Source: Azolla caroliniana (Eukaryota > Plantae > Polypodiophyta). From it: a DNA stretch of 64,000 nucleotides. The notes beneath the pieces are model-generated. The model made no database searches, was not told the origin of the DNA, and saw nothing but the letters and a program-made list of their open reading frames with translations. Position numbers and translations under genes: made by a program. Where the stretch lies: contig JBHGNT010000017.1 of assembly GCA_043228905.1 (NCBI GenBank), forward strand, positions 9,982,001 to 10,046,000, written 5' to 3'. Shown here piece by piece: positions 22,508 through 64,000 of this stretch (positions within the stretch are counted from its first letter, which is position 1; every line of letters starts with the position of its first letter).

Positions 22508-24502
22508 ATGGGTTCGGATGCAGGTAATGGCGGTGGTGTTCCAAGGAATACATGGAGTGATGAAGATCTACTCATGATAAAGCACCTATTGGGCCCTTCT
22601 GCCATAGCTCAGCTCTCATGGAGTTTGCAAGGTTTAACACCTGTAGGGGGAAGGAGACTGAATGAAATAGCTCTTCAGCAGAGGCTCCATAACCTCGTTG
22701 AAGGATCAGCCGTAAATTGGACGTATGCTATCTTCTGGCAACTCTCAAGCTCGGCAAAAGGGGAAGAGGTACTGGGCTGGGGGGATGGTTACTTCAAAGG
22801 TCCTAGAGAGAAGCAAGAAAAGCCAAAAGATGAAGATCAAGGAGGAGGCCCAGGAGAAGAAAAAGGTTTCCATCATTCTATGACAGTTGATGAACGCCTA
22901 AAACGACGAGTCCTTCGCCTCTTACAAACCCAATTCTGTGCAGCGAGTGACGGTGACCTTATGGACATCGCGGAAGGAGACTTTGTTTCTGACACAGAGC
23001 TCTTCTACTTGATCTCTATGTTTTATTCTTTCTCGCGGGGTATGGACGTTCCAGGATTGGCCTTAGAGTCACAAAACCATGTCTGGTTGACTGGGAACAA
23101 CCTCGATAACTCTTCGGTCTGTACCCGATCTTCGATTGTGAGGATGGCTGGGATTCAAACCATCGTTTGTGTCCCGACTCTGAATGGCGTGGCCGAGCTC
23201 GGATCCACCGATCTTATCTTCGAGAACCGTAAACTCATCCATGAGATTAAGGTCTCATTTACAGAAGATGTTTGGGAGAAGCCACAATTAGACGAAACCC
23301 GCCACAGTCATAATAATCACAATCTTTCCTTGGTTAAGGAAGAGGCTTCGGTGTCACCTCCAGAGAGCCCAATTGTTACATTAATGCTCAATTCAGGGAA
23401 GCAAGAGAGTATAAGATCAAGTGTAACTCCAGATCGAGATCAACATTTTCATGGAAGCATGCTGACCACCAAAATTCCTGACCTAAGATCATCGCTCCCA
23501 CTTGCGCCCAATTTTCCGTTGAACCCGTTTTTGGCTGCCCAAAGGGCAGCAGCAGCCAAAGTCTTCCAAGCTCACGGATGGCAACAAAAGCAATCTTTTC
23601 CAGCGAACAACCCACCTGGTTCAGAAATCGCTCATGGAGGAACAAACCACCGCGTGAGCCCAAATGGCACGAATTTGAGCACCAAAATAGGTGGACATCT
23701 GTTCTTTCACAAGAGCGATCCGTCTCCGCAGTACTTGCCCAAATCGGACATGAATGGGCAGATGATCCGGCAGAAGGAACCAACAGTCCAGATGCACTCG
23801 TCGTCAAAAAACGGGGGAGAGAACACCAAGCAACAGTATGAGGGTCTTTCACTTAATAGCAGCATGCCGGCTAGTAGGCCATCATGTATTGTAGAATCGG
23901 AACATTCACAGCATTCAGATTTAGAAGCATCATGCAAGGACACTCTGGAAGAAATGAGGCCTCGAAAGAGGGGACGCAAGCCGGCGAATGGTCGGGAAGA
24001 GCCTTTGAACCACGTAGAGGCCGAAAGGCAAAGGAGAGAGAAACTAAACCAACGGTTTTATGCATTGAGATCGGTGGTCCCCAATATCTCCAAGATGGAT
24101 AAGGCATCTCTTCTCGGGGATGCAGTTTCATACATTCAAGAACTCCAAGGGAAGCTTAGAGAGATGGAGCAAGAGAGAGAAGAGCTTTTACTGGCTAGTG
24201 GCATTGACATAATGGAGATTAGGAAAGATCGGGTTCGTAACTTTTCGGCTAATTCTAGAGGTGCCCCAACAATTGACTTACAAATTCATAATGGTGAGGC
24301 TACAATACAAGTGACTTGTTCTAGGGAATCACACCCTCTCAATAAGGTTATTGAGGGTTTGAAGGAGCTAAACGTTGAGTTCCCGACTGCCAATGTGGCT
24401 CTTGTCGATGAATCATTCCTTCACACATTTAAGCTCGATGTGAAGAGCTCTAGCAACATCACCCAAGATTTGCTACATTCGGTTCTGACGAAAGGCCTAT
24501 GA
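22508..24502 (+). CDS. MYC2: MYC2-like bHLH transcription factor (subgroup IIId/e), 664 aa, intronless
   Basis: bHLH-MYC_N/JID ([45 protein letters not shown]); b[57 protein letters not shown]; ACT-like C-terminus. Symbol is family-level; orthology untested. Confidence 0.93.
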
Positions 24503-38800: not shown

Positions 38801-39080
38801 TTATACTAATATGACTTTTCGGCTATTTACAAATATAGCCTCGATGGACTCTCAAAAACATATTTACGAATATGTCCCTTCATCCGGTGAGCACTCATCA
38901 CCGGGCCTGCATCATCCGGCGGTTGCCAGGCACACGTCATCCGGTTCTCACCGGGTCTTCTGTTGCCGGGCACTCCACATCCGGTTCTCACCGGGTCTTC
39001 CGTAGCCGGGTACTTGTCATCCGTTTGCTCATCGACACTGTTCTTCTCACTTCCCATCCGGAGGGACTTGTTTCCTAACA
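35863..39080 (-). mobile_element. Copia family B 5' half (LTR 38427-39080, PBS, gag, protease, integrase)
   Basis: PBS tagtatcagagc at 38412-38423; MDESLGGMFKLTGSNY; CFYCGKPGHFQKNC; WVVDSGASFH; LNGLAERMNRT. Confidence 0.9.
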
Positions 39081-51530: not shown

Positions 51531-52100
51531 AACATGTTCGTGTTCAGAAGTGGAAGGATCGTGCACAATTGGAAGGATAGGGAATATTCCGTTACATTTC
51601 AGGTTGTTTTTAACCATCTCACAAAAAATGTGATACCTGTATCACATGCGCTCAAAGACTCAATGGAAAAGCTTAAAATATCACCATGTCATAAAATTGA
51701 AAACTCACAAAATTAGGCAAATGGAAGAATTTTACAACATGTTTTTTACCGTAAAAATAACAACTCATGTTTTTTATAACAAACAATATTCACAATGAGC
51801 AATTGATTTAAAAAAAATTAAGCTTTATATCATTTGAGTTCCTACAAGCTTATATTGTTAAGTGTTCATGCCACAAAATACAATCAAGAGTTATTCCTCC
51901 CATAAGAATCGCTACTATAGAACCTAGTGTACAATAGGGAGTCATGCTCCTCGTCATCAGACGTACCAATCAAAGCATTGTCTTCATCTAAAAGCAAATG
52001 TTGTGACTCCAAATCATGTATAGAAGATCTGGTCTGCCTTGGATTTGAGATTGCTCTTTTATTATGTCTATTGTTGACTTCCTTAAACGTTGAGCTTTTG

Positions 52101-55100
52101 TTAGTGTAAAGTCGTACACAATGATATCGACATCTCATATGTCAAGGGTCGATGTGTTATAGATATTTCTTTTCCTCTTGACGTTGGGCATTCCATCATC
52201 TCTAATGTATACTTGCATGTGAATGCATTCTTTCTTTTAGTATTGTACCAATGCACCTTTGTTGACTTTATCTGATTTTGGCTTTCATGCATCACCATGT
52301 ACAATACTTTATCAATCCAAAATTGGTGACCCATGTCATTGTCATCTGCAGGTGTGGCAATTAACATCCCAACCTTTATTTCTTGTGTGTTTCCTTGCCA
52401 ACGAGCTTCTGCTGCTTTTGTCATCCTCGGTCCCTCTCTGTTGTGGATGGAGCAAGTTGTCAAGATCCACATTAGTTGCACGCGGTGAAGTTTGAGAATT
52501 AGGCATGTGTTGTATAGACCACATAAATGGTATTTGCAAGGGCCACATACCAATGAAGGAATTATCAATAATTCCTCGTTCATCACTAAAGAACATGTCC
52601 CACCATGAGGTATCTTGTGGTCCAACATACTTCTTTGCATTATCAATATGATTCCTTTTGTCCTGTAAGGCTTACATCCAAAAGTTCCTTTGTTCATCTA
52701 CCAAGTCACTGTGCATTTCCTTTTTAGTCTCAATGGGCATTTGTTTTGCACAATGAATAGTAGTTACAAATGTCATTTGAAGCAAGAACTGGCAACCGCC
52801 TTCTGGATCCCACTGTGGGGAAGATGAATATTCCTTTGCATGAAACAATGTACAACCACTTATATCATTTTTCTTTATCAAGACCACGTGATTGAAGCTA
52901 ATATTGTTTAATTGGGCTAACGCTTTCACATTCTCCTCCCCACCATCTGCTATGTATCTCTTAAAGTCGTATATCTCCCTTAAGTGGAGCACATTCGGAC
53001 ATGGAGTATATGCATCACAAATGACATCAAATAACTTTTGTAATGTGAAAGCATCATATTGAGACAATTGTGTAGATAATGTACTGAAGATATAATCAAT
53101 ATGGTCATGTGTGTGACCAACCAGAATGAAGTTAACTTTAACTTTCCCAAACACTCCCTGTTCCACCAACATGCTCAAATATCAGAAGAAAATTGAATTC
53201 TTGTTCTCTCTAGCAGTGTTGTCCAATTCAATGTAGAGAATAAGGGGCAATGGGTGCCCCAATTCATCAGAACACTTTGAATAACAATAATTGCTAGGTT
53301 GGGGTCGTTGTGGACATTCGGGTAAGTAAGGAAGACATGAGGTTTAATTGTTCCATTATAAGCCAAACAACCCACCAAGTGCATCTGAACGAGACATTCA
53401 TCATTGATGTCTTTAGGAAGCCTCCTAAGGTGAGGTACACACGTCTTCTTATTCTGGTTTCTTAAACGACTTCTCTTTGTTGTGCGTTGCTTTTTTCTGC
53501 TCCAGTGCTTGTGTTTCTCGATGGTCCTATAACAATTGTTTATTGATGTCCTTCTCCTTTGTTGTTTTAGCAACTTTAGTCATGCTCTTCAAGTTTGCAC
53601 AAATAGAATAATACCCCGTGCGTACTTTCCGAGGTATGACAACATTAGTGAGTTATGTTGACCACAATCTTGTGAACTGACTGTAGGTGACATATTTATC
53701 ACTTGACGTTAACATATCCGATCTATAGGCATCATATACTTCTCGTCGTGTGTAATTATCTGAAAGATGCAACCTACTAGTACTTGGCATTACTTCACAA
53801 TTAAGGTTGGAGTAGTTCTTCATCCAACAGATTGCATTTCTTCCGGATGCAACCTTCATACTGCCGGGAACTCAAACGCTCCCTATACGCAACGCTCGGC
53901 CACAACCGAGCTTAGAATCATACACAGACAAACGGGAAATAAAACACGACACGAAGAAGAAACCCAAAGAGGGAAAAACCACGGCAGCCCACAGGCTGCA
54001 AACTATTACTATGCTAGAATGTACAACAGTGAGTTCACGGAGGCAACGACCTCGTGCTCACGATCCTCGCCACAGGCGGCGGTTACAATAGAGGCAACGA
54101 CCTCTTTCTCTCTCTCTCTCTCTCTCTGTACACAGTTACGCGCTCTATCTATTCTTGCACCAACAAGAATGACAACAACAACAACAGTCATAAGTTTGCC
54201 CTAAGTCATATTTATACTAATATGACTTTTCGGCTATTTACAAATATAGCCTCGATGGACTCTCAGAAACATATTTACGAATATGTCTCTTCATCCGGTG
54301 AGCATTCGTCACCGGGTCTGCACCATCCGGCTCTCCGTAGCCGGGTACTCCTCATCCGGTTCTCACCGGGCCTGCACCATCCGGCTCTGTTCTTCTCCCT
54401 TCCCATCCGGAGGGACCTGTCTCCCAACACATACTTGGAACGTCGTCGCCATCGACATTGAGATCACCATTGAGAACTCGTTGTTGCACTCTATGTAATC
54501 TCATGTTGCTAACACATAATGAAAACTTGAATGCCACTCTACAACATTGTAATCCATTGACGATATAATACTCAAATGAGATCTTAATGTCTGACAATAT
54601 GTCCTTCACCATCTACATCTTCGTTGCAAGATAGTGTCTTGCTTATCACTAGTGAGTGAGAAATAGTATTGCCTTAATGACCGTAACTTATCCTTCCCAA
54701 TTGTAGACATGCACCCACGTGCACAACAATCTTTGCCGATATCTACTCTAAGTTGGTTCTTAGATGTCACAAGGGCAAACCTATCTCGGTTGTTTTGACA
54801 TGGAACCCTCGTAAAATGCATAGGGCTTGTCGATTGGATTTCTTCTACACATACATTAGTTGGCTCATTTTGTTCATTTACTTCGGAATGTGCAACACCC
54901 ACAATACTTGTGGCAGCTTGATTGTCATTCTCTTCATAGGTTAGATCCTCATTGTTTTTGTACTCATTAATCGAGAACTCATGACTTAGGGCGATAGTTG
55001 ATGGTGACTGAGTATTTGGTGTCCATGCGCAATATTCTTCGACAATAAAAGGTGATCCTATCAAAATAGGATATGTATCCACTAAAAATGGTGAGTTTTC

Positions 55101-55142
55101 GCTCATTCTCTCAAACTCTGAAGATCCTGTCAAACGATTCAC
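52101..55142 (-). pseudogene. Sola1-like DDD DNA transposase, degenerate, split by a solo LTR
   Basis: LYIELDNTARENKN..VKVNFILVGHTHDHIDYIFS; Cys-rich N-terminus (DCCARGC, CCRVAF); YSQFTRLW; reading rejoins across 53862-54429. Confidence 0.65.
53862..54429 (-). mobile_element. Solo LTR, Copia family B
   Basis: TG..CA ends; perfect TSD catac (53857-53861 and 54430-54434). Confidence 0.92.
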
Positions 55143-55549
55143 TATTGTTCAAATGAGGTGCTCTGTACAATATAAGAAAGCATATAACAAATGACTGAAG
55201 GTAAACACATACCTATCAATATAAAAATATAATTTAAAAGAAATCACATTAAATATATATATATATATTGTCGTTTAATACGCAGAATAATCTCCGGCAA
55301 CAACCGAAGGGTAAATCACTTGATACAATCGAACACAGCAGAAATGGGAATGGAGGTAAGTGCACGAACAAACAAAAGAGAATACACAGGATATTAACGT
55401 GGAAAACCCTGAGAAGGAAAAACCACGGGAGTCCACAGACTCCAAACTATCACTATGTAAAGTAATACAATAGGGAGCACAGAGGCAAGGACCTCTTGCT
55501 CACAATCTTCGCCTCGCGGCGGTTACAACAGAGACACAATCTCTGTATG

Positions 55550-55599
<50 letters not shown>

Positions 55600-55770
55600 G
55601 CATTGTATAGAGCTTACACCAAACAACAACTCACATTGAGTTTGCCCTAGGTCATATTTATACTAATATGACTTTCGGGCTATTTACAAATATAGCCCTA
55701 GTGGGCTCTCTGGAACATATTTACATATATGTCCCTTCCATCCGATGAGAGGTTCTCACCGGGCCTGCAA

Positions 55771-55980
55771 CATCCGGTTCTCACCGGCTCTTCCGTTGTC
55801 GGGTACTCCACATTCGGTTCTCACCGGGTCTTCCGTTGCCGGTTACGCCACATCCGGTTCTCACCGTGTCTTCCATTGCCGGGTACGCCACATCCGGTTC
55901 TTACCGGGTCTTCTGTTGCCGGGTACACCACATCTGGTTCTCACCGGGTCTTCCGTTGCCGGGTATGCCACATCCGGATT
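55771..55980. repeat. 40-bp tandem repeat in Copia B LTR (also 60842-61050)
   Basis: Unit catccggttctcaccgggtcttccgttgccgggtacgcca, about 5 copies. Confidence 0.9.
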
Positions 55981-58315
55981 CTTCTCACGGTTCTTCTCAC
56001 TTCCCATCCAGAGGGACCTATTTCCTAACAAACTCCCCCTTCACTCCGGCATGGGATGTCTTACTAGTCCGATCCGCTTCTGACATGCATCCAACTTGTC
56101 GGGCATCAGTACTTTGGTCAGCATATCTGACCCGTCCTCGGCCGTGTGGATCTTCGTCAGCGCGAACTCTTGATCTTCTACTCGCTCCCGGATCCAGTGA
56201 TACCTACGTTGGATGTGCTTCGTCCTAGAATGGTACACTGCGTTCTTAGCAAGGTGGATGACACTTTGACTGTCGCAATAGAGCCGATATTCATCTTGCC
56301 GGATACCGAGCTCTCCGATGAAGTCCTTCATCCATAATATTTCCTTGCCGGCTTCAATAGCCGCCATGTACTCCACCCTCCGCCTCCGTGGTTGACAATG
56401 CTACCGTCTTCTGCAGCCTCGACTGCCACGAAACAGCTCCCCTAGCATATGTCATTACATACCCGGATGTAGTCCGGTTGGTATCCACATCAGCCGACAT
56501 ATGCGAATCGGTAAAAATGTCAAGTTGAGTTTTACCGAAGCCAAATTGGAGACACATATTCAAAGTGCCCTTCAAGTACCGGAGTATCCATTTGACCGCG
56601 TTCCAGTGCTCCTTGCCGGGATTGCTCATAAATCGGCTCACCACTCCGACTGCGTCACCAATATCCGGTCGATTACACACCATTGTGTACATTAAGCTCC
56701 CGACGGCAGAGGCATATGGCACCTTCATCATATCCGCCTTCTCTGCTTTCGTCTTCGGGCTTTGCTTACCAGATAATCTGCAGTTTGCCGGAAGTGTCGG
56801 TCTGACCGGTTTCGCGTCTAACATGTTGAACCACTGAAGCACCTTTGTCACGTACTTCTCCTGTGACAACCATAATTGCTTCTTTGGCCGGTCCCGGATG
56901 ATATACATCCCCAGCATCTGTCTTGCCAGACCCAAGTCTTTCATTGCGAAAGTTCGGTTGAGAGCCTTCTTCAGCATCCGTATTTTGGCTTGGTCCCGTC
57001 CGACGATCAACATGTCGTCCACGTACAGAAGGAGTATCAGGAAGTTGCCTCCTTCGAAATTCTTCACAAACACGGAGTGATCGGCTTGCGTCTTGTGGTA
57101 CCCTTGATTGGTCATGAAGGAGTCGAACTTCCGGTACCATTGTCGGGGAGCTTGCTTCAGTCCGTACATGCTCTTCTTCAACCAGCAAACCAGGTGCTCT
57201 TTCCCTTTCTCCATGAATCCTTCCGGTTGCTGCATGTTGATCTCCTCTTCGAGGTCACTGTGAAGGAATGCCGTCTTCACGTCCAGCTGCTCTACCTCAA
57301 GGTCCATGCTTGCCGCTATACTTAGCACCGTCCGGATGGAGGTCATCTTTACTACCGCGGCAAATATCTCGTCGAAGACCACACCCTTCTTCTGTTGGAA
57401 CCCCTTCACCACGATCCTGGCTTTGTATCTCGGGGGGTTGCCGGCATCTCCCTATTCATCTTGTACACCCACTTGTTTCGGAGTGCCCGCTTTCCTTTCA
57501 GCAACTCCACCAATTCGTACGTATGGTTCTGATGCAGGGAATCCATCTCATCCTGCATGGCACTTAACTATTTGCGGCTATGGGCGTCACTTTTGGCTTC
57601 CTCGAAGCTTTCTAGCTCCCCCTCATCGGTTAGCAACACATGTTTTGCATCTAGAAATCTCTGGGGGGGGGCTTCTCTCTCTGAGAGGATATCTCCGTAT
57701 TTGGCTTTCGGCAACCGGCTCCTCTATTTGTTCTTCATCCAAATCCGATTCGGGGTCTTGGCCGGTTCCGATTTCACCTATTCCTTCTTCTTTGGCCTGT
57801 CTTGTCTCGTTACCGTCACTGGCCGGTTCATCGAGTGCTAACCGGTCTCTTGATGGTTGGGTCTGCTCATCGTAGAATCGATCCTTACGGGTCGACTCAG
57901 AGTTCATTATCTTCTTCTCCGACTCCCAATCGGCGAGCGTCTTGTCCTCCATGAAGATAATATCTCGACTCCGGAATACCTTCTTGTCGGCCAGGTCCCT
58001 CACTCGGTAGCCGAACTCATCCTCGCCGTAACCGAGGAATATGCATGGCCGGGTCTTCGGATCTAATTTTCCTCTCCGGTCCTTAGCTACATGCACATAT
58101 GCAAGACACCCGAATACCTTCAGATGCCGGTAGGACACTTCCTTACCGGTCCAGACTCTCTGTGGCGTGTGTCCGTCCAAGGGTACTGAGGGTGATCTGT
58201 TTATCATATATTTCGCCGTTGACAGTGCCTCAGCCCAAAACTTCTTGGGTAGTTTTGCATGCGGTAGCATACTCTGGACCCTCTCCATTATGGTCCGGTT
58301 CATCCTCTCAGCTAG

Positions 58316-59303
58316 CAAAAGAGAAAATTGTGAAAGGAAAAGAGAAAATTGTGAGATATCCCACATAGGCACGACAAATACGGCTCTCATCATATATAAG
58401 GTAGAGCAAAAGATATTATCTTTGTGTCTATGTGTGGAGCATAGAGAGTTCAAGGTAACTTGAACTAAGAGTGGAGGTGGGCTAGCTACTCGTAAAGGGT
58501 TTTGGCCAACCAAAACCGGACCGGCGATGGAGCCAGTGAGACACTGGCATCCGACGACAATCTGGCGGCAGCATCCGGCAGCAATCCGGTGACGGCGAGG
58601 TGACGGTACCCGGCGACGGCCAGGCGGCGGCATCCAGTGACGGCGAGGCACCGGTATCCGGCGGCAACCGGCGACACACCGGTAACCGACGGCATCCGAC
58701 GAACCGGCGTCCGATGATTAGATAAATAAATATATAAATATATATACATATATACATATACAAGGAGGGCAAGTAAGGATTGGAACCTTGCACCTCTGAG
58801 TTAGGAGTCAATTGGCTTACCATTAAGCCATGCCATTTAGTTGATTTATATTTCTATCATTGTACTTTTACGTGTAAATTCTCATACATTAGAGCTAAAA
58901 TGAGTGACATGGTTATCATGCACCACATGTAATACATAAGCGCCAAATAGCAAGCATGCATTTTATGCATGTCTTGTACCCTCACATGCATCATATGCAT
59001 GAGAGCATCTATAAAAGAAGGAAGGGGGAGGAGAAAAAACGCGTTTTTTCTTTTTTGGTTATGAAATTAAGAAGAAGAAATTCGTTATCAAAATGATCGT
59101 GTAACTTGTTTCTTAAATCCAAAGATAAAAGTTCAATCAATCTCTCTCAATCGTTTAATCTCAACTTCTCTCTTTCCCAATCTATCTTAAATACTTTCTC
59201 GCCAAAGCTTGCGCCAAAGCTTGTACTGACTTTGAATCCTTCCGGTCCAGAACCTCGGCGGTTCCGCCTCACGATCCGCGCGTAGTGATGGATCTTCACG
59301 ACA
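58316..59303 (+). mobile_element. Truncated LTR related to the 7845 family, inserted in Copia B
   Basis: End reads tgtcgtgaagat on minus, identical to the terminus at 7845; TATAAAA at ~59010; adjacent Copia sequence is deleted. Confidence 0.65.
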
Positions 59304-61504
59304 CCGGTTGGTGTTGTCAACCACACGTCTCCTATGCCGACAATTCGGCATATACCTTCATTCCCCATCCAAACACAGCCGTGATCACCGGCTGAGTAGG
59401 ATGAGAAGCATTTCCGGTCCGGGGTAAGGTGGAACGATGCTCCGGAGTCGACCACCTAGGTCATCTCGTCGCCGGCAAGGTTTAGCTCACTCTCCTCGGT
59501 GATGAGCATCAACTCTTCTTCACTTTCCGCGATTGCCGTCGTTCCCTTTTGGTCCGCCCCCCTCCGGTCTTTACCGTTCCGGTCCGATGTCTGCTTCGAA
59601 TCGGTACCATCGGTTTCCTTGTCTTTTCGGAAGTGCCGACAGTTTTTCTGGAAGTGTCCCGGCTTGCCGCAATAGAAGCAGGTAGGCCTCCCCCTTGACT
59701 TTGACCGTGTCCCCAACATTTCCCGGTTCTGGGGACTATGATTCCTTTGTCTTCCGTGTTCTGATTCAGTAAGGAGCGCTTTGGAGTCGAAGCTCGTATC
59801 CTTATCTTTCTGACGCGCCTCCTTATCTAGCAAGCTCAAACTTCACTCTTGCTAGGGATAACCGTTTCCCTTCCGGCCCGGCGTTGCCCAAAGTGACAAC
59901 CAAAGTCTCCCAGCTATCTGGGAGGGAACCGAGTAGGAGTAGTACCTCATTAGCGAGAGGTACTTCCAATGATGTTGCCTGGTGGATCAGCCCCTAGAAG
60001 GCATTCATGTGCTCCGCCATGCTGGAGCCATCTTGGTACCGGAGTCTTACGAGCTTCCGAAATACCGAAACCTGATCTTCTCCCAGAGCTCATGAGCCTT
60101 GCTCTCTTCATTGAAGTTGTTGTATAGACTCATGTCGATGAAGCACCGTATGTACGCCGTTGTCTTCATGTGCATCACCTCCCATGTCGTGGCATCGATT
60201 TTGTCCGGTCTCTTGTCCCCGAACTGAACCGGCAACCAAAGATCTTTAACCACGAGCATGTCCGTCATCTTCGACTTCCACACTGAGTAATTGGAGCCGG
60301 TGAGCTTGAACATGCCTCCCAACGAATCGTCCATTTTTCTGTGTCAGTTCGCTCTGATACCAGTTTGTCGTTTAATACGCGGAATAATCTCCGGCAACAA
60401 CCGAAGGGTAAATCACTTGATACAATTGAACTCAGCAGAAATGGGAATGGAGGTAAGTGCACGAACAAACAAAAGAGAATACACAGGATATTAACGTGGA
60501 AAACCCTGAGAGGGAAAAACCACGGGAGTCCACAGACTCCGAAATATCACTATGTAAAGTAATACAATAGGGAGCACAGAGGCAAAGACCTCTTGCTCAC
60601 AATCTTCGCCTCGCGGCGGTTACAACTGAGACACAATCTCTGTATGTCGCTCTCTCTCTCTCTCCCTTACGCACTGTACAGAGGTTACACCAAACAACAA
60701 CTCACATTGAGTTTGCCCTAGGTCATATTTATACTAATATGACTTCCTGGCTATTTACAAATATAGCCCCAGTGGGCTCTCTGGAACATATTTACATATA
60801 TGTCCCTTCCATCCGATGAGAGGTTCTCACCGGGCCTACAACATCCAATTCTCACCGGGTCTTCCGTTGCCGGGTACTCCACATCCGGTTCTCACCGGGT
60901 TCTTCCGTTGCCGGGTACGCCACATCCGGTTCTCACCGAGTCTTCCGTTGCGGGGTACGCCACATCCGGTTCTCACCGGGTCTTCCGTTGCCGGGTACGC
61001 CACATACGGTTCTCACCGGGTCTTCCGTTGCCGGGTATGCCACATCCGGATTCTTCTCACGGTTCTTCTGACTTCCCATCCGGAGGGACCTATTTCCTAA
61101 CATATATAATCATATATATATATATATATATATAATCACATATATATATTGACATTATAACTAACTATATAACTAACCAAGGTCAAGTTTTAACTAACCT
61201 CACCTAATTTTTTGTGCCGTATATATAGCCGTGCTTTTTCTTTTTTCCCTACAGAGCGTGAGAGATAACACGAGACAAGACAACATGTCAAACCAACGAG
61301 CTAGAGATGAGAGCATACAACCCACGAGCATGACCAATGAGCGAGAGAGGAGACCATCACCGCCGCAACGACCATGCAGAAGACAACAGACACTTAACGA
61401 CCATGTCCTCCAAGAAGATGGCCTGATCGGATTCCATGTATGAAACCCTTATCTATACGGACACCTTCTCATTCATATCATTCTGCTTGTATAGCCATAT
61501 GAGC

Positions 61505-62025
61505 AACTCGATACTTGGTACCAAGTTGCTCCCCTTTTAGACCCCGTGTGGGCCCCAACTCGAACTCGATACCAAGTATCGAGTTGGGGTCTAAAGGGGG
61601 AGCAACTCGATACCAAGTATCCAGTTGGTATCGAGTTGTTCCCCCTTTAGACCCCAACTTGATACCAAGTATCGAGTTGCCACCCCTATGTATACAAACT
61701 CGATACTTGGTATCGAGTTGGGGACCATCTGGATACAAACTTGATATATGTGGAGCAACTCGATACCAAGTATCGAGTTTGTATACATATGGTCCGAAAC
61801 TTGATACCAAGTATCGAGTTTGTATACATATGGGCCCAAACTCGATACTTGGTATCGAGTTGGTACACATATTTGTACTAACTCTATTCTTGGTGTTCAG
61901 TTGGTACACATATGTGCCTCAACTCGATACTTGGTATCGAGTTCAAGCCCATATGTGGAGCAACTCGATACCAAGTATCGAATTTGTATACATATAGGCC
62001 CCAACTTGATACCACGTATCCAGTT
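61505..62025. repeat. Array of 23-bp palindromes separated by 18-bp spacers (41-bp period)
   Basis: aactcgatac-caa/ttg-gtatcgagtt, some copies degenerate, at 61505, 61563, 61604, 61656, 61697, 61757, 61798, 61839, 61880, 61921, 61962 and 62003. Confidence 0.9.
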
Positions 62026-62644
62026 GGTACACATATGTGCTACAATTTACATGTTTATTGTCTTATAATACTACATTGGGCATAAAAATCAAAGATTTTT
62101 AGCTTTAGGTTTTAGATGTTATTTTGGAAAATTTAAGCCAAATGCCCCCTAGTATTAGGCATACAAATAGCCTTATGAAGTCTTTCTACAACTATCAGGG
62201 CCCATTTCTTGAGTTTCCCTATTTTATTATGTGATTAGGTCTGCAGATCCTAAGGATGAGCACCCTAAGAAGATGATTCAACTAAAATTTCAAAGCTCTC
62301 CGATAGAAACCTCTAAAGTCCCCCCTCTCACGTTCACGCAGAAAGGGAATAAATTATTATTTGAAGATGACTTTGTTAGGCAACCATTTGACAAAGTGAG
62401 TCAGGAGAAGAGGGTGGCTCCTCATGGGGGTGAAACTCTGATTGATAGAGACATCATTGAACACGAGTGGGCCATGCAGTATGTTGACTCAAGTAAGAAG
62501 GTTGTACTCATAATGTCTCATAACAAAGGTCAAGGGGAGCTAGCCAAGGACCGACCCTTTGGTTATGGCTAAATATTGAGATTGGACTATGAAGACGCGG
62601 ACTCCAAAACCCTAGTGGTTCTAGTTTAATGCTCGAAGGGAGTT

Positions 62645-64000
62645 TGTTGGCCGGTCAAAAGAGCAAGGACAAGTGGGAAGGCGGATCGGATAATAGGAAG
62701 TAATAGTAGAATTATTATTCGGAGGGACGGATTCGGTACAGTTGTACCGATCCGGATCCGAACTGATTCGGATGTCCGTTGCCTAAGCGCACCGATTGTA
62801 ACCTTGCCGGATGCCTATAAAAGGATCCGATGATTTGTAAAGTGTTTTGACGGAAGTAATACAATAGTAATTATTGTGTATTTATCTGTATCTCGTATTG
62901 TTTGCCGTCCGTGCTTAATTGTAATTATCTTATGCGTGTAACCTAGCATCCAATCCTTACCACCCCTTTGGAGAAGTGTCGGGTAGACACCTGTGTTGAG
63001 GCTAGTTCGGCCAGACAGACAACACTATTTTGGCGACCACGATTCCTGCAAAGTGCAGAGGACAACCGGGGGATGGATATCTAGACCAAACGACGACCAC
63101 ATCACCGAATGAGGGAGACGATACACCGAACGCGAGCAACGACGGGAAGCCCTGCAGCAAGCCGTCGACGAGATCCGGCGGGATCGGTCATTCTCCAAAA
63201 CTCTTCGGAGAGTCGCAGAAGAAGCACTACAGTTCCGGGTTCTGCAAATCCCCGACGAAGGCAGTAGCATAACAAGCCTGCAAGAGGCGGAAACGATACT
63301 GCAGACGCTCGCCGCGGGCGACGGGGACTCGGAAGCATTCGCAACACTTGAGGCGGAGTCGGAAAGCGACGGAAGCGTTGTATCCCGGTATAAAAGCAGC
63401 CACGACACACCAAACGACCGGGAGGACGAGGGGTCGGAAGACTCAGTAACACCGGCGCCAGAGGAAGAAATAACCCTGGAATTCGGTGACCAGCAACCGC
63501 CGAGGAAGGCTGACCGGATACCGACAACAACCGCGAGGGAACCGAAGGAGTGGATACCGACAACAACCGCGGAGGAACCAACGGACCGGACACCGGCAAC
63601 ACCCGCGGAGGAACCAAAGGTTCTCACACCAACGCCAACAGCGGACAGAGAACGGAGGGAACAGGAGAGTCAGTTGGACGACACGATGCCGTACCCATAC
63701 CCAAAGTACCGGGATGAGGCCGACGCGGAGGCACACGTGTACGCATTCCTCCAAACATGGGAAGCCAACCATATCTCCCAAAGACTGACGGAGCCCGAAG
63801 CCGAACGATCCAAAATCGCCGAATTCGGCATAACCTTAGAAGGACCGGCGGCCCAATGGCACGCAAAGCACTTACCAGGCACCTTTGCCACATTCGATGC
63901 CTTGAAGGCCAGATTCCTCAGGTTTTTTCACAGACAATTTGAGCAAAGGGAATTGGTCGGGCAGTTCTACACCACCCGGCAGGAAGAGAACGAGACTATG
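62645..64000 (+). mobile_element. Gypsy 5' end: LTR 62645-63024, tRNA-Arg-type PBS, gag running off the window
   Basis: tgtt..aaca; TATAAAA at ~62816; PBS tggcgaccac at 63031-63040; gag YPKYRDEADAEAHVYAFLQTW..LEGPAAQWH..FDALKARFLRFF. Confidence 0.85.

Follow-up and report, generated by a model that had tools for sequence, protein, structure and literature searches.

A tandem array of short palindromes in the genome of Azolla caroliniana raises the question of what such an array does and why its units are scrambled. The window, by which we mean the whole stretch of 64,000 nucleotides that was analysed, contains 12 palindromic sites of the pattern AACTCGATAC-NNN-GTATCGAGTT, with starts from 61505 to 62003.

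61505..62025, no strand assigned: palindrome array, 12 sites of 23 bp (10+3+10), 41-bp period

Five of the 12 sites are perfect, six have one or two mismatches and one has five. With up to two mismatches allowed, the pattern has 11 matches in the window, every one within the array, and 0 matches in 100 dinucleotide shuffles. The gaps from site to site are, in order, 58, 41, 52, 41 and 60 bp and then six times 41 bp, so that 8 of 11 are 41 bp, confirming the preliminary description of about 12 copies mostly at a 41-bp period; the three irregular gaps contain half-sites. The CAA and TTG cores reported in both orientations are also seen (six CAA, five TTG and one CAC), as are the 18-bp spacers in both orientations, which are quasi-palindromic. 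The array had been given as 61505 to 62043; the start is correct, but the last site ends at 62025, and the remainder is a single spacer-like tail.

The array had been tied to a Sola-like element, and it does lie within the same TIR transposon. The features of this element are as follows.

51531..64000 and a further 12,276 bp beyond the window, no strand assigned: Sola-like TIR DNA transposon, broken copy, recognised by TIR and TSD
51531..51559, plus strand: left TIR, compared over 29 bp and differing from the TIR of the young family at 3 positions
51950..55150 (approximate ends), minus strand: broken Sola-like DDE transposase, Pfam DUF7869, split by a solo-LTR-like insertion
53863..54429, no strand assigned: solo-LTR-like insertion that interrupts the transposase and that two sister copies lack
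55268..61102, minus strand: nested Copia retrotransposon, in a TA run in the interval between the transposase and the cargo-gene promoter
62645..64000 and on to window-equivalent 72696, plus strand: nested Gypsy retrotransposon, TSD GAGTT, LTRs 98.7% alike

The right TIR ends at window-equivalent 76276, the TSD is AGAA, and the element is about 8.3 kb long without its nested insertions. It is homologous to a young family of the same genome, a 9.3-kb element with TIRs and 4-bp TSDs that was defined from eight 20-30-kb regions around 51-bp arrays. A 4-bp TSD is present at 8 of the 13 TIR pairs printed, the window's included, and the five pairs that lack one are one mispaired TIR set and four short old elements. 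The transposase matches Pfam DUF7869 only, and three acidic motifs were located in it; its Sola1 label comes from the preliminary description and is treated here as an assumption. Most TSDs are A/T-rich. The AWWT target preference, which has been termed a hallmark of Sola1 (PMC3845634), fits one of the eight TSDs, and the element is therefore filed as Sola-like and not as strict Sola1.

With the nested Copia removed, the distance between the array and the 5' part of the transposase is about 0.5 kb, in agreement with the preliminary description. The suggestion that the sites are subterminal does not hold: with the nested insertions taken out, the two ends of the element lie about 3.6 and 4.2 kb away from the array, and the arm (at one mismatch or fewer) is not found outside the array in the rest of the window copy or of one young copy. 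The position of the array in the element is thus central. Two other features of the window are recorded here. A 40-bp tandem repeat occurs in Copia LTRs (55770-55982, 60841-61054 and 38922-39031), and an intact, intronless ORF of 664 aa at 22508-24499 (plus strand) encodes a MYC-type plant transcription factor with bHLH-MYC_N, HLH and ACT-like domains. Among members of the Sola-like family elsewhere, elements are often nested or abutting, different subfamilies included (L142-L143, L144-L145, L054-L056); three tandem TIR copies lie 154 bp apart at L224:5655-5963, and nine same-orientation TIR matches fall within 260 kb at G000:C2:21.05-21.30 Mb, perhaps a tandem amplified block.

Opposite the transposase lies a second gene, the cargo gene, which fuses a ParB fold to an N6/N4-methyltransferase, and the array is enclosed by its predicted first intron.

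61403..61437, plus strand: predicted exon 1 of the ParB-methyltransferase gene, 35 nt, phase 2, GT donor
61438..62238, plus strand: predicted intron 1, which encloses the array, in-frame acceptor AG at 62237-62238
62239..62644, plus strand: first part of exon 2 of the ParB-methyltransferase gene, interrupted by two stops and resuming after the Gypsy at window-equivalent 72697

A TATA-like box is located at 61220. The length and phase of exon 1, as read from the sequence, are identical in the young family, and the 35-nt exon and in-frame acceptor bracket the array in both subfamilies, where splicing is predicted. In the window copy, exon 1 contains a TGA, and stops also accompany the ParB core and the methyltransferase motifs DIPY and LDLFSG, which lie at window-equivalent 73.0-75.0 kb; given the stops and the Gypsy in exon 2, this copy of the gene is dead.

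The protein was modelled from a young copy. The predicted structure of the exon-2 core (pLDDT 79.9) resembles those of ParB, Noc and KorB (Foldseek E 2.4e-5; VIA Z 9.5 for PadC and 8.5 for KorB), and in the model a ParB/Srx domain is followed by a helical DNA-binding region. A Pfam search of the ParB exon gives no match, and the ESM Atlas pointed to fungal DUF3723, which serves as a lead only. The later exons match N6_N4_Mtase (PF01555) at 29.2 bits against a Pfam cut-off of 26.7. The catalytic DIPY motif precedes the SAM-binding LDLFSG motif, and both are kept in most copies of both subfamilies; by the motif rule that we assume for DIPY, the target base is probably adenine. Named homologues of the protein occur in a fern (71%), Ginkgo (41-45%) and a liverwort (36%). 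The ORFs of the element yield the transposase and the cargo gene only, with no gene for a ParA partner, and the module is therefore at most like sopC in its working and is not a partition system.

The site is abundant in this genome. A search for the exact 23-bp site, as proposed in the preliminary description, finds 2,757 copies in the 523-Mb genome compared with 0 for a reversed control, and the arrays are linked to full elements. Among the first 100 matches listed, the cores are mostly GCC/GGC at a 51-bp period. In the genome as a whole, the CAA/TTG form accounts for 31 exact sites at 14 places. The arms are identical in two subfamilies that are about 70% identical in DNA, and the array is central and intronic in both. 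At 43 metagenome loci the same arms are found with several core types and with spacers that are often unrelated, and 12 of the 43 arrays contain at least three core types. The exact 23-mer also occurs in prokaryotic sequences. A prokaryotic origin of the site was rejected, since the matches (14 in genome contigs and one in a viral contig) are single, with no second site within 1 kb, and we regard them as unrelated hairpins. In the 14 bacterial contigs (L241-L254), 12 of which are from Flavobacterium, the 23-mer stands between A and T runs and is probably a terminator-like hairpin.

The spacing of the sites is phased. The metagenome search admitted any period from 41 to 51, and the periods found are 41 (85 cases), 50 (16) and 51 (98), while 42-49 never occur; spacings overall fall on a 10.2-bp ladder of 31/41/51/62/71. 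The spacer clusters are in phase in 79 of 99 cases, and the best-fit repeat over 119 clusters is 10.2 bp. The spacer ends, though the spacers are unrelated, are self-complementary, with 3.2 of 6 positions pairing compared with 1.6 after shuffling (91 clusters). These features bear on the explanation that the array acts as RNA, with intron hairpins that would give rise to small RNAs or control splicing of the cargo gene. The array does lie inside a predicted intron, its folding z-score is -17.5 (computed as single-stranded DNA), and an Rfam scan returns 33 matches, many of them weak and miRNA-type. However, none of these matches reaches the gathering score, the fixed arm sequence and the 10.2-bp phase suit double-stranded DNA, and the hairpin content scrambles freely, so we hold a role as RNA to be highly improbable.

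A second clade of elements uses a different site with the same geometry. From 94 loci retrieved with a distant protein query we sampled 20, picked for top score and varied frame length. Although the loci were picked by protein match, sites are present at 19 of the 20, and the site-less locus is truncated. Of these 19, all but one use a different arm, AATCCGATGC, in the same 10+3+10 build and with 41/51 spacing; 644 exact sites of this type were found. The 18 loci belong to a clade with 55-58% identity over the exon. Five of them have a single site only, and a long array is therefore not needed. Some second-clade arrays are long (L256, L258, L260 and L274), with 20-21 sites at mostly alternating 51- and 41-bp spacing; their order is far better kept than in the 51-bp family, and their differences include in-place core flips.

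Short derivatives also keep the array. Among 16 loci picked blind by a single TIR match, all three short, internally deleted elements with two TIRs retain it, two of the three cases being from one family. One non-autonomous family of 1.4-3.0 kb has TIRs, 3' gene stubs and a degenerate array with the arm variant AATTCGATAC (G000:C9:1188220-1190746, L156, L164, L026, L213 and L225), and in the first of these copies a longer inverted repeat brackets the array.

The preliminary description offered transposase-binding sites as one explanation. The sites do look like protein-binding sites, but the transposase as the binder is weakened by the location of the array inside a ParB-fold gene that the preliminary description had not recognised. 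A modified form of that idea, in which the sites are an internal enhancer that binds the transposase and aids assembly of the transposition complex and their intronic position is incidental, fits the retention of TIRs and array by the short elements, the distance of about 0.5 kb to the transposase 5' end and the different sites of clades with different transposases. The second-clade transposase is 40-50% identical and diverges together with the site, so the two clades cannot tell which protein binds. Against an enhancer stand the absence of the arm from the TIRs and subterminal DNA and a TIR that is common to subfamilies with different spacers. In addition, part of a report on red algae describes inverted-repeat arrays that adjoin a ParB gene in EnSpm/Plavaka elements, which have an unrelated transposase (10.1101/2025.02.11.637652). 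We consider a transposase enhancer unlikely.

We think it rather probable that the array serves dimers of the cargo ParB-methyltransferase as a docking platform, helically phased in the manner of sopC/parS, and that homology-driven processes of the host scramble it. This reading is favoured because the arms are fixed while cores and spacers are free, the spacings fall on the 10.2-bp ladder, a second palindrome has the same geometry, and short copies retain the array. Dimers of the cargo protein would dock on the palindromes, and the docked protein would methylate the element's own DNA, probably at adenine. A counterpoint is that the CTPase arginine patch of ParB proteins, with the motif GERR, reads GGSHS in the cargo protein.

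Comparison of copies shows how fast the array changes. We used 75 of the 88 young copies (those on large contigs), of which 70 are complete. The preliminary description called for comparing spacer order and orientation among copies, and the 70 copies have 68 array structures with 2-16 sites each, which supports its proposal of shuffling by inversion in that neither order nor orientation is fixed. A MITE, foldback element or satellite with fixed order and no link to the transposase is thus not what we find. Of 62 copies that have a neighbour at 98.5% identity or more, not one has the same structure as that neighbour, and array length is equal in one of 51 neighbour pairs. The spacers of the young family are of a few related, self-complementary types that are reused and inverted, and the array ends are stable while the middle varies, unlike the one-end addition of a CRISPR array, which the locus had been said to resemble. 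One pair of copies (L125 and L126) has 2 versus 10 sites with flanks 99.9% alike, and was dropped as a case of change without transposition since a 100-N assembly gap separates the two copies; it is included in the counts of 70 arrays and excluded from the neighbour-pair and distance statistics. Some differences in array length may be assembly errors. A 13.8-kb duplication at G000:C16:11.91-11.94 Mb (L208-L211), whose halves are 99.8-99.9% alike and meet at a 100-N gap, is probably an unmerged assembly overlap.

Array distance nevertheless correlates with flank distance (rho 0.33), and the window and its sister L032 have in common a degenerate site and six of six collinear spacers, indicating that the array variation is largely inherited. 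Both results also count against a further explanation, in which the element simply carries along a palindromic minisatellite that has no function, and assembly error accounts for some of its variation. Arms in inserted copies accumulate changes at the neutral rate (CpG 44/2080 compared with 55/2800 in flanks), with no faster homogenisation or protection of the arms seen there, and one pair of copies differs across an assembly gap, both as expected of a minisatellite. Because the arms decay like the flanks in inserted copies, selection is visible between lineages only, and the neutral CpG decay gives no sign that the arms are protected from host methylation. A minisatellite, however, does not account for arms that stay fixed across subfamilies and other assemblies despite spacer turnover, for the phase ladder, or for the homologous site in the second clade (56-58% protein identity), and we judge it very unlikely.

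The changes themselves point to a mechanism. The flank tree requires at least 10 changes of the first core and at least 6 of the last, and in the window's own subfamily the last core is of the CAA type in two copies and of the TTG type in four. Core flips occur beside homologous spacers in 14 of 68 cases and beside divergent sequence in 2 of 66, counted as copies and not as independent events. Six asymmetric arm pairs carry the loop both ways, with exchange points inside spacers, and 25 of the 70 young arrays have irregular gaps, that is, off-register joints. The notion that each jump brings scrambling is contradicted: two second-clade insertions (L256 and L260) are 99.9% alike over 6.7 kb, with five mismatches, one of them the central base of a core, and they keep 21 sites in order with one core different. 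Among the few pairs compared, scrambling is no greater in old sister copies than in young ones, a hint that array change belongs to the active phase.

The preliminary description also proposed recombinase-like sites with an asymmetric core. In a shufflon-like form of this idea, units would be actively inverted by an element-encoded enzyme, either the transposase or the ParB/Srx fold with nuclease activity, that makes its cut in or close to the 3-bp core. The arm-core-arm geometry, the very fast change among nearest neighbours and a change that seems confined to the active phase would all suit such an enzyme. Cores anchored to unique flank flip, however, which a core-conserving recombinase cannot bring about; terminal cores do change orientation, and exchange is not confined to the conserved core. 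Matching cores would be required, yet 12 of the 43 metagenome arrays have at least three core types; precise joints would be expected, yet 25 of 70 arrays are irregular; and a new insertion can retain 21 sites in order. No Pfam match to a serine or tyrosine recombinase was found in 7 ORFs of a young copy and 9 ORFs of the window. We regard an enzyme of this kind as quite unlikely, and the same low estimate includes a variant in which a sloppy enzymatic cut is followed by host repair.

Homology-driven template switching is the likely cause of the shuffling and is favoured over site-specific recombination because anchored cores flip, exchange points lie within spacers, and joints are off register in 25 of the 70 arrays. 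Template-switch mutation produces loop inversion and palindrome perfection, the same spectrum as the array changes, and in yeast a fork barrier promotes inversion between close inverted repeats, as described in parts of the respective papers (PMC10710096, PMC8748988); both are general host processes, likened to the array by their spectrum. Any two sites would match one another as direct and as inverted repeats alike, and host replication and repair, through template switching and conversion within the array, could flip cores and spacer loops and duplicate or delete units. A bound protein could promote switching as the yeast fork barrier does. Selection in active lineages would preserve the arms and phase only, and the scrambling would be a by-product and not stored information.

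Taken more broadly, and tentatively, land-plant Sola-like transposons may carry a self-addressed epigenetic module of bacterial type, in which a ParB-fold methyltransferase loads on a phased, centromere-like array in its own gene with a clade-specific address. Even derivatives without genes would require the array in cis, and the protein, once bound, would turn it into a rearrangement hot spot that leaves nearly every young copy with a barcode of its own. We see this wider proposal as possible though short of probable. If true, it would provide plants with a sequence-addressed 6mA/4mC writer. The scrambled arrays also serve as barcodes of individual insertions and offer a natural assay for template switching.

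Parts of this system have precedents. In the brown alga Ectocarpus, the main text of one paper describes the 21.5-kb element Sola1-1_Ec32, in which a Sola-type transposase is paired with an opposite-strand gene that fuses ParB-like and 4mC/6mA methyltransferase domains, and proposes that the fusion protein binds and modifies its own sequence (PMC12477816). The pairing is like that in Azolla, while the host and length differ; the term 'palindrom' is absent from that main text, and no array, phasing or shuffling was found there. In Bostrychia Plavaka (EnSpm) elements, the ParB accessory gene of PAG2/PAG3 adjoins tandem inverted-repeat arrays, its proposed binding sites, and the cassette contains a DNA methylase (10.1101/2025.02.11.637652). 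This likeness extends across a different transposase superfamily, and there a 2OG oxygenase is the fusion partner of ParB, with the methylase encoded by a gene of its own; an analysis of phasing or rearrangement was not found in the portion of the preprint cited. ParB-linked methyltransferases are also described in phage loci and algae, with no array in the relevant part of that paper (PMC4738411).

The geometry is closest to that of sopC on the F plasmid, where, in the account drawn on here, about 12 tandem units, each with a palindrome, are bound by the ParB-family HTH dimer SopB (PMC3177203). The two have in common a four-helical-turn spacing, a palindrome per unit and a variable unit number. 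In sopC, conserved direct repeats of 43-45 bp each hold a site of 16 bp, and the system has a ParA partner. The Azolla array, in contrast, has 23-bp sites on a 10.2-bp ladder with spacers that vary freely and can invert, and its element encodes a methyltransferase fusion and no ParA. In purpose, the array resembles the anti-silencing system VANDAL/VANC, in which a transposon accessory protein targets fast-evolving tandem repeats within its own element (PMC5735166). VANDAL is a MULE, and VANC removes methylation and is not described in the cited part of that paper as a ParB or methyltransferase; its function is proven, whereas that of the Azolla protein is predicted.

Our literature search found no report from land plants and none on phasing or shuffling of such arrays; the supplements of the algal papers, which lay outside the search, may describe arrays. 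The pairing of a ParB-methyltransferase with Sola in Ectocarpus and the ParB-adjacent inverted-repeat arrays in Bostrychia are thus already published, in the parts of the two sources cited; to these the present analysis adds the fitted 10.2-bp repeat, the second type of site and the account of shuffling. The two algal papers, both from 2025, proposed in those parts that ParB-type transposon proteins bind and chemically mark their own DNA, and the Azolla family gives this proposal exact terms in a land plant: a pair of putative cognate 23-bp sites, a rule for their spacing, young copies that carry open reading frames, and deletion derivatives that arose naturally.
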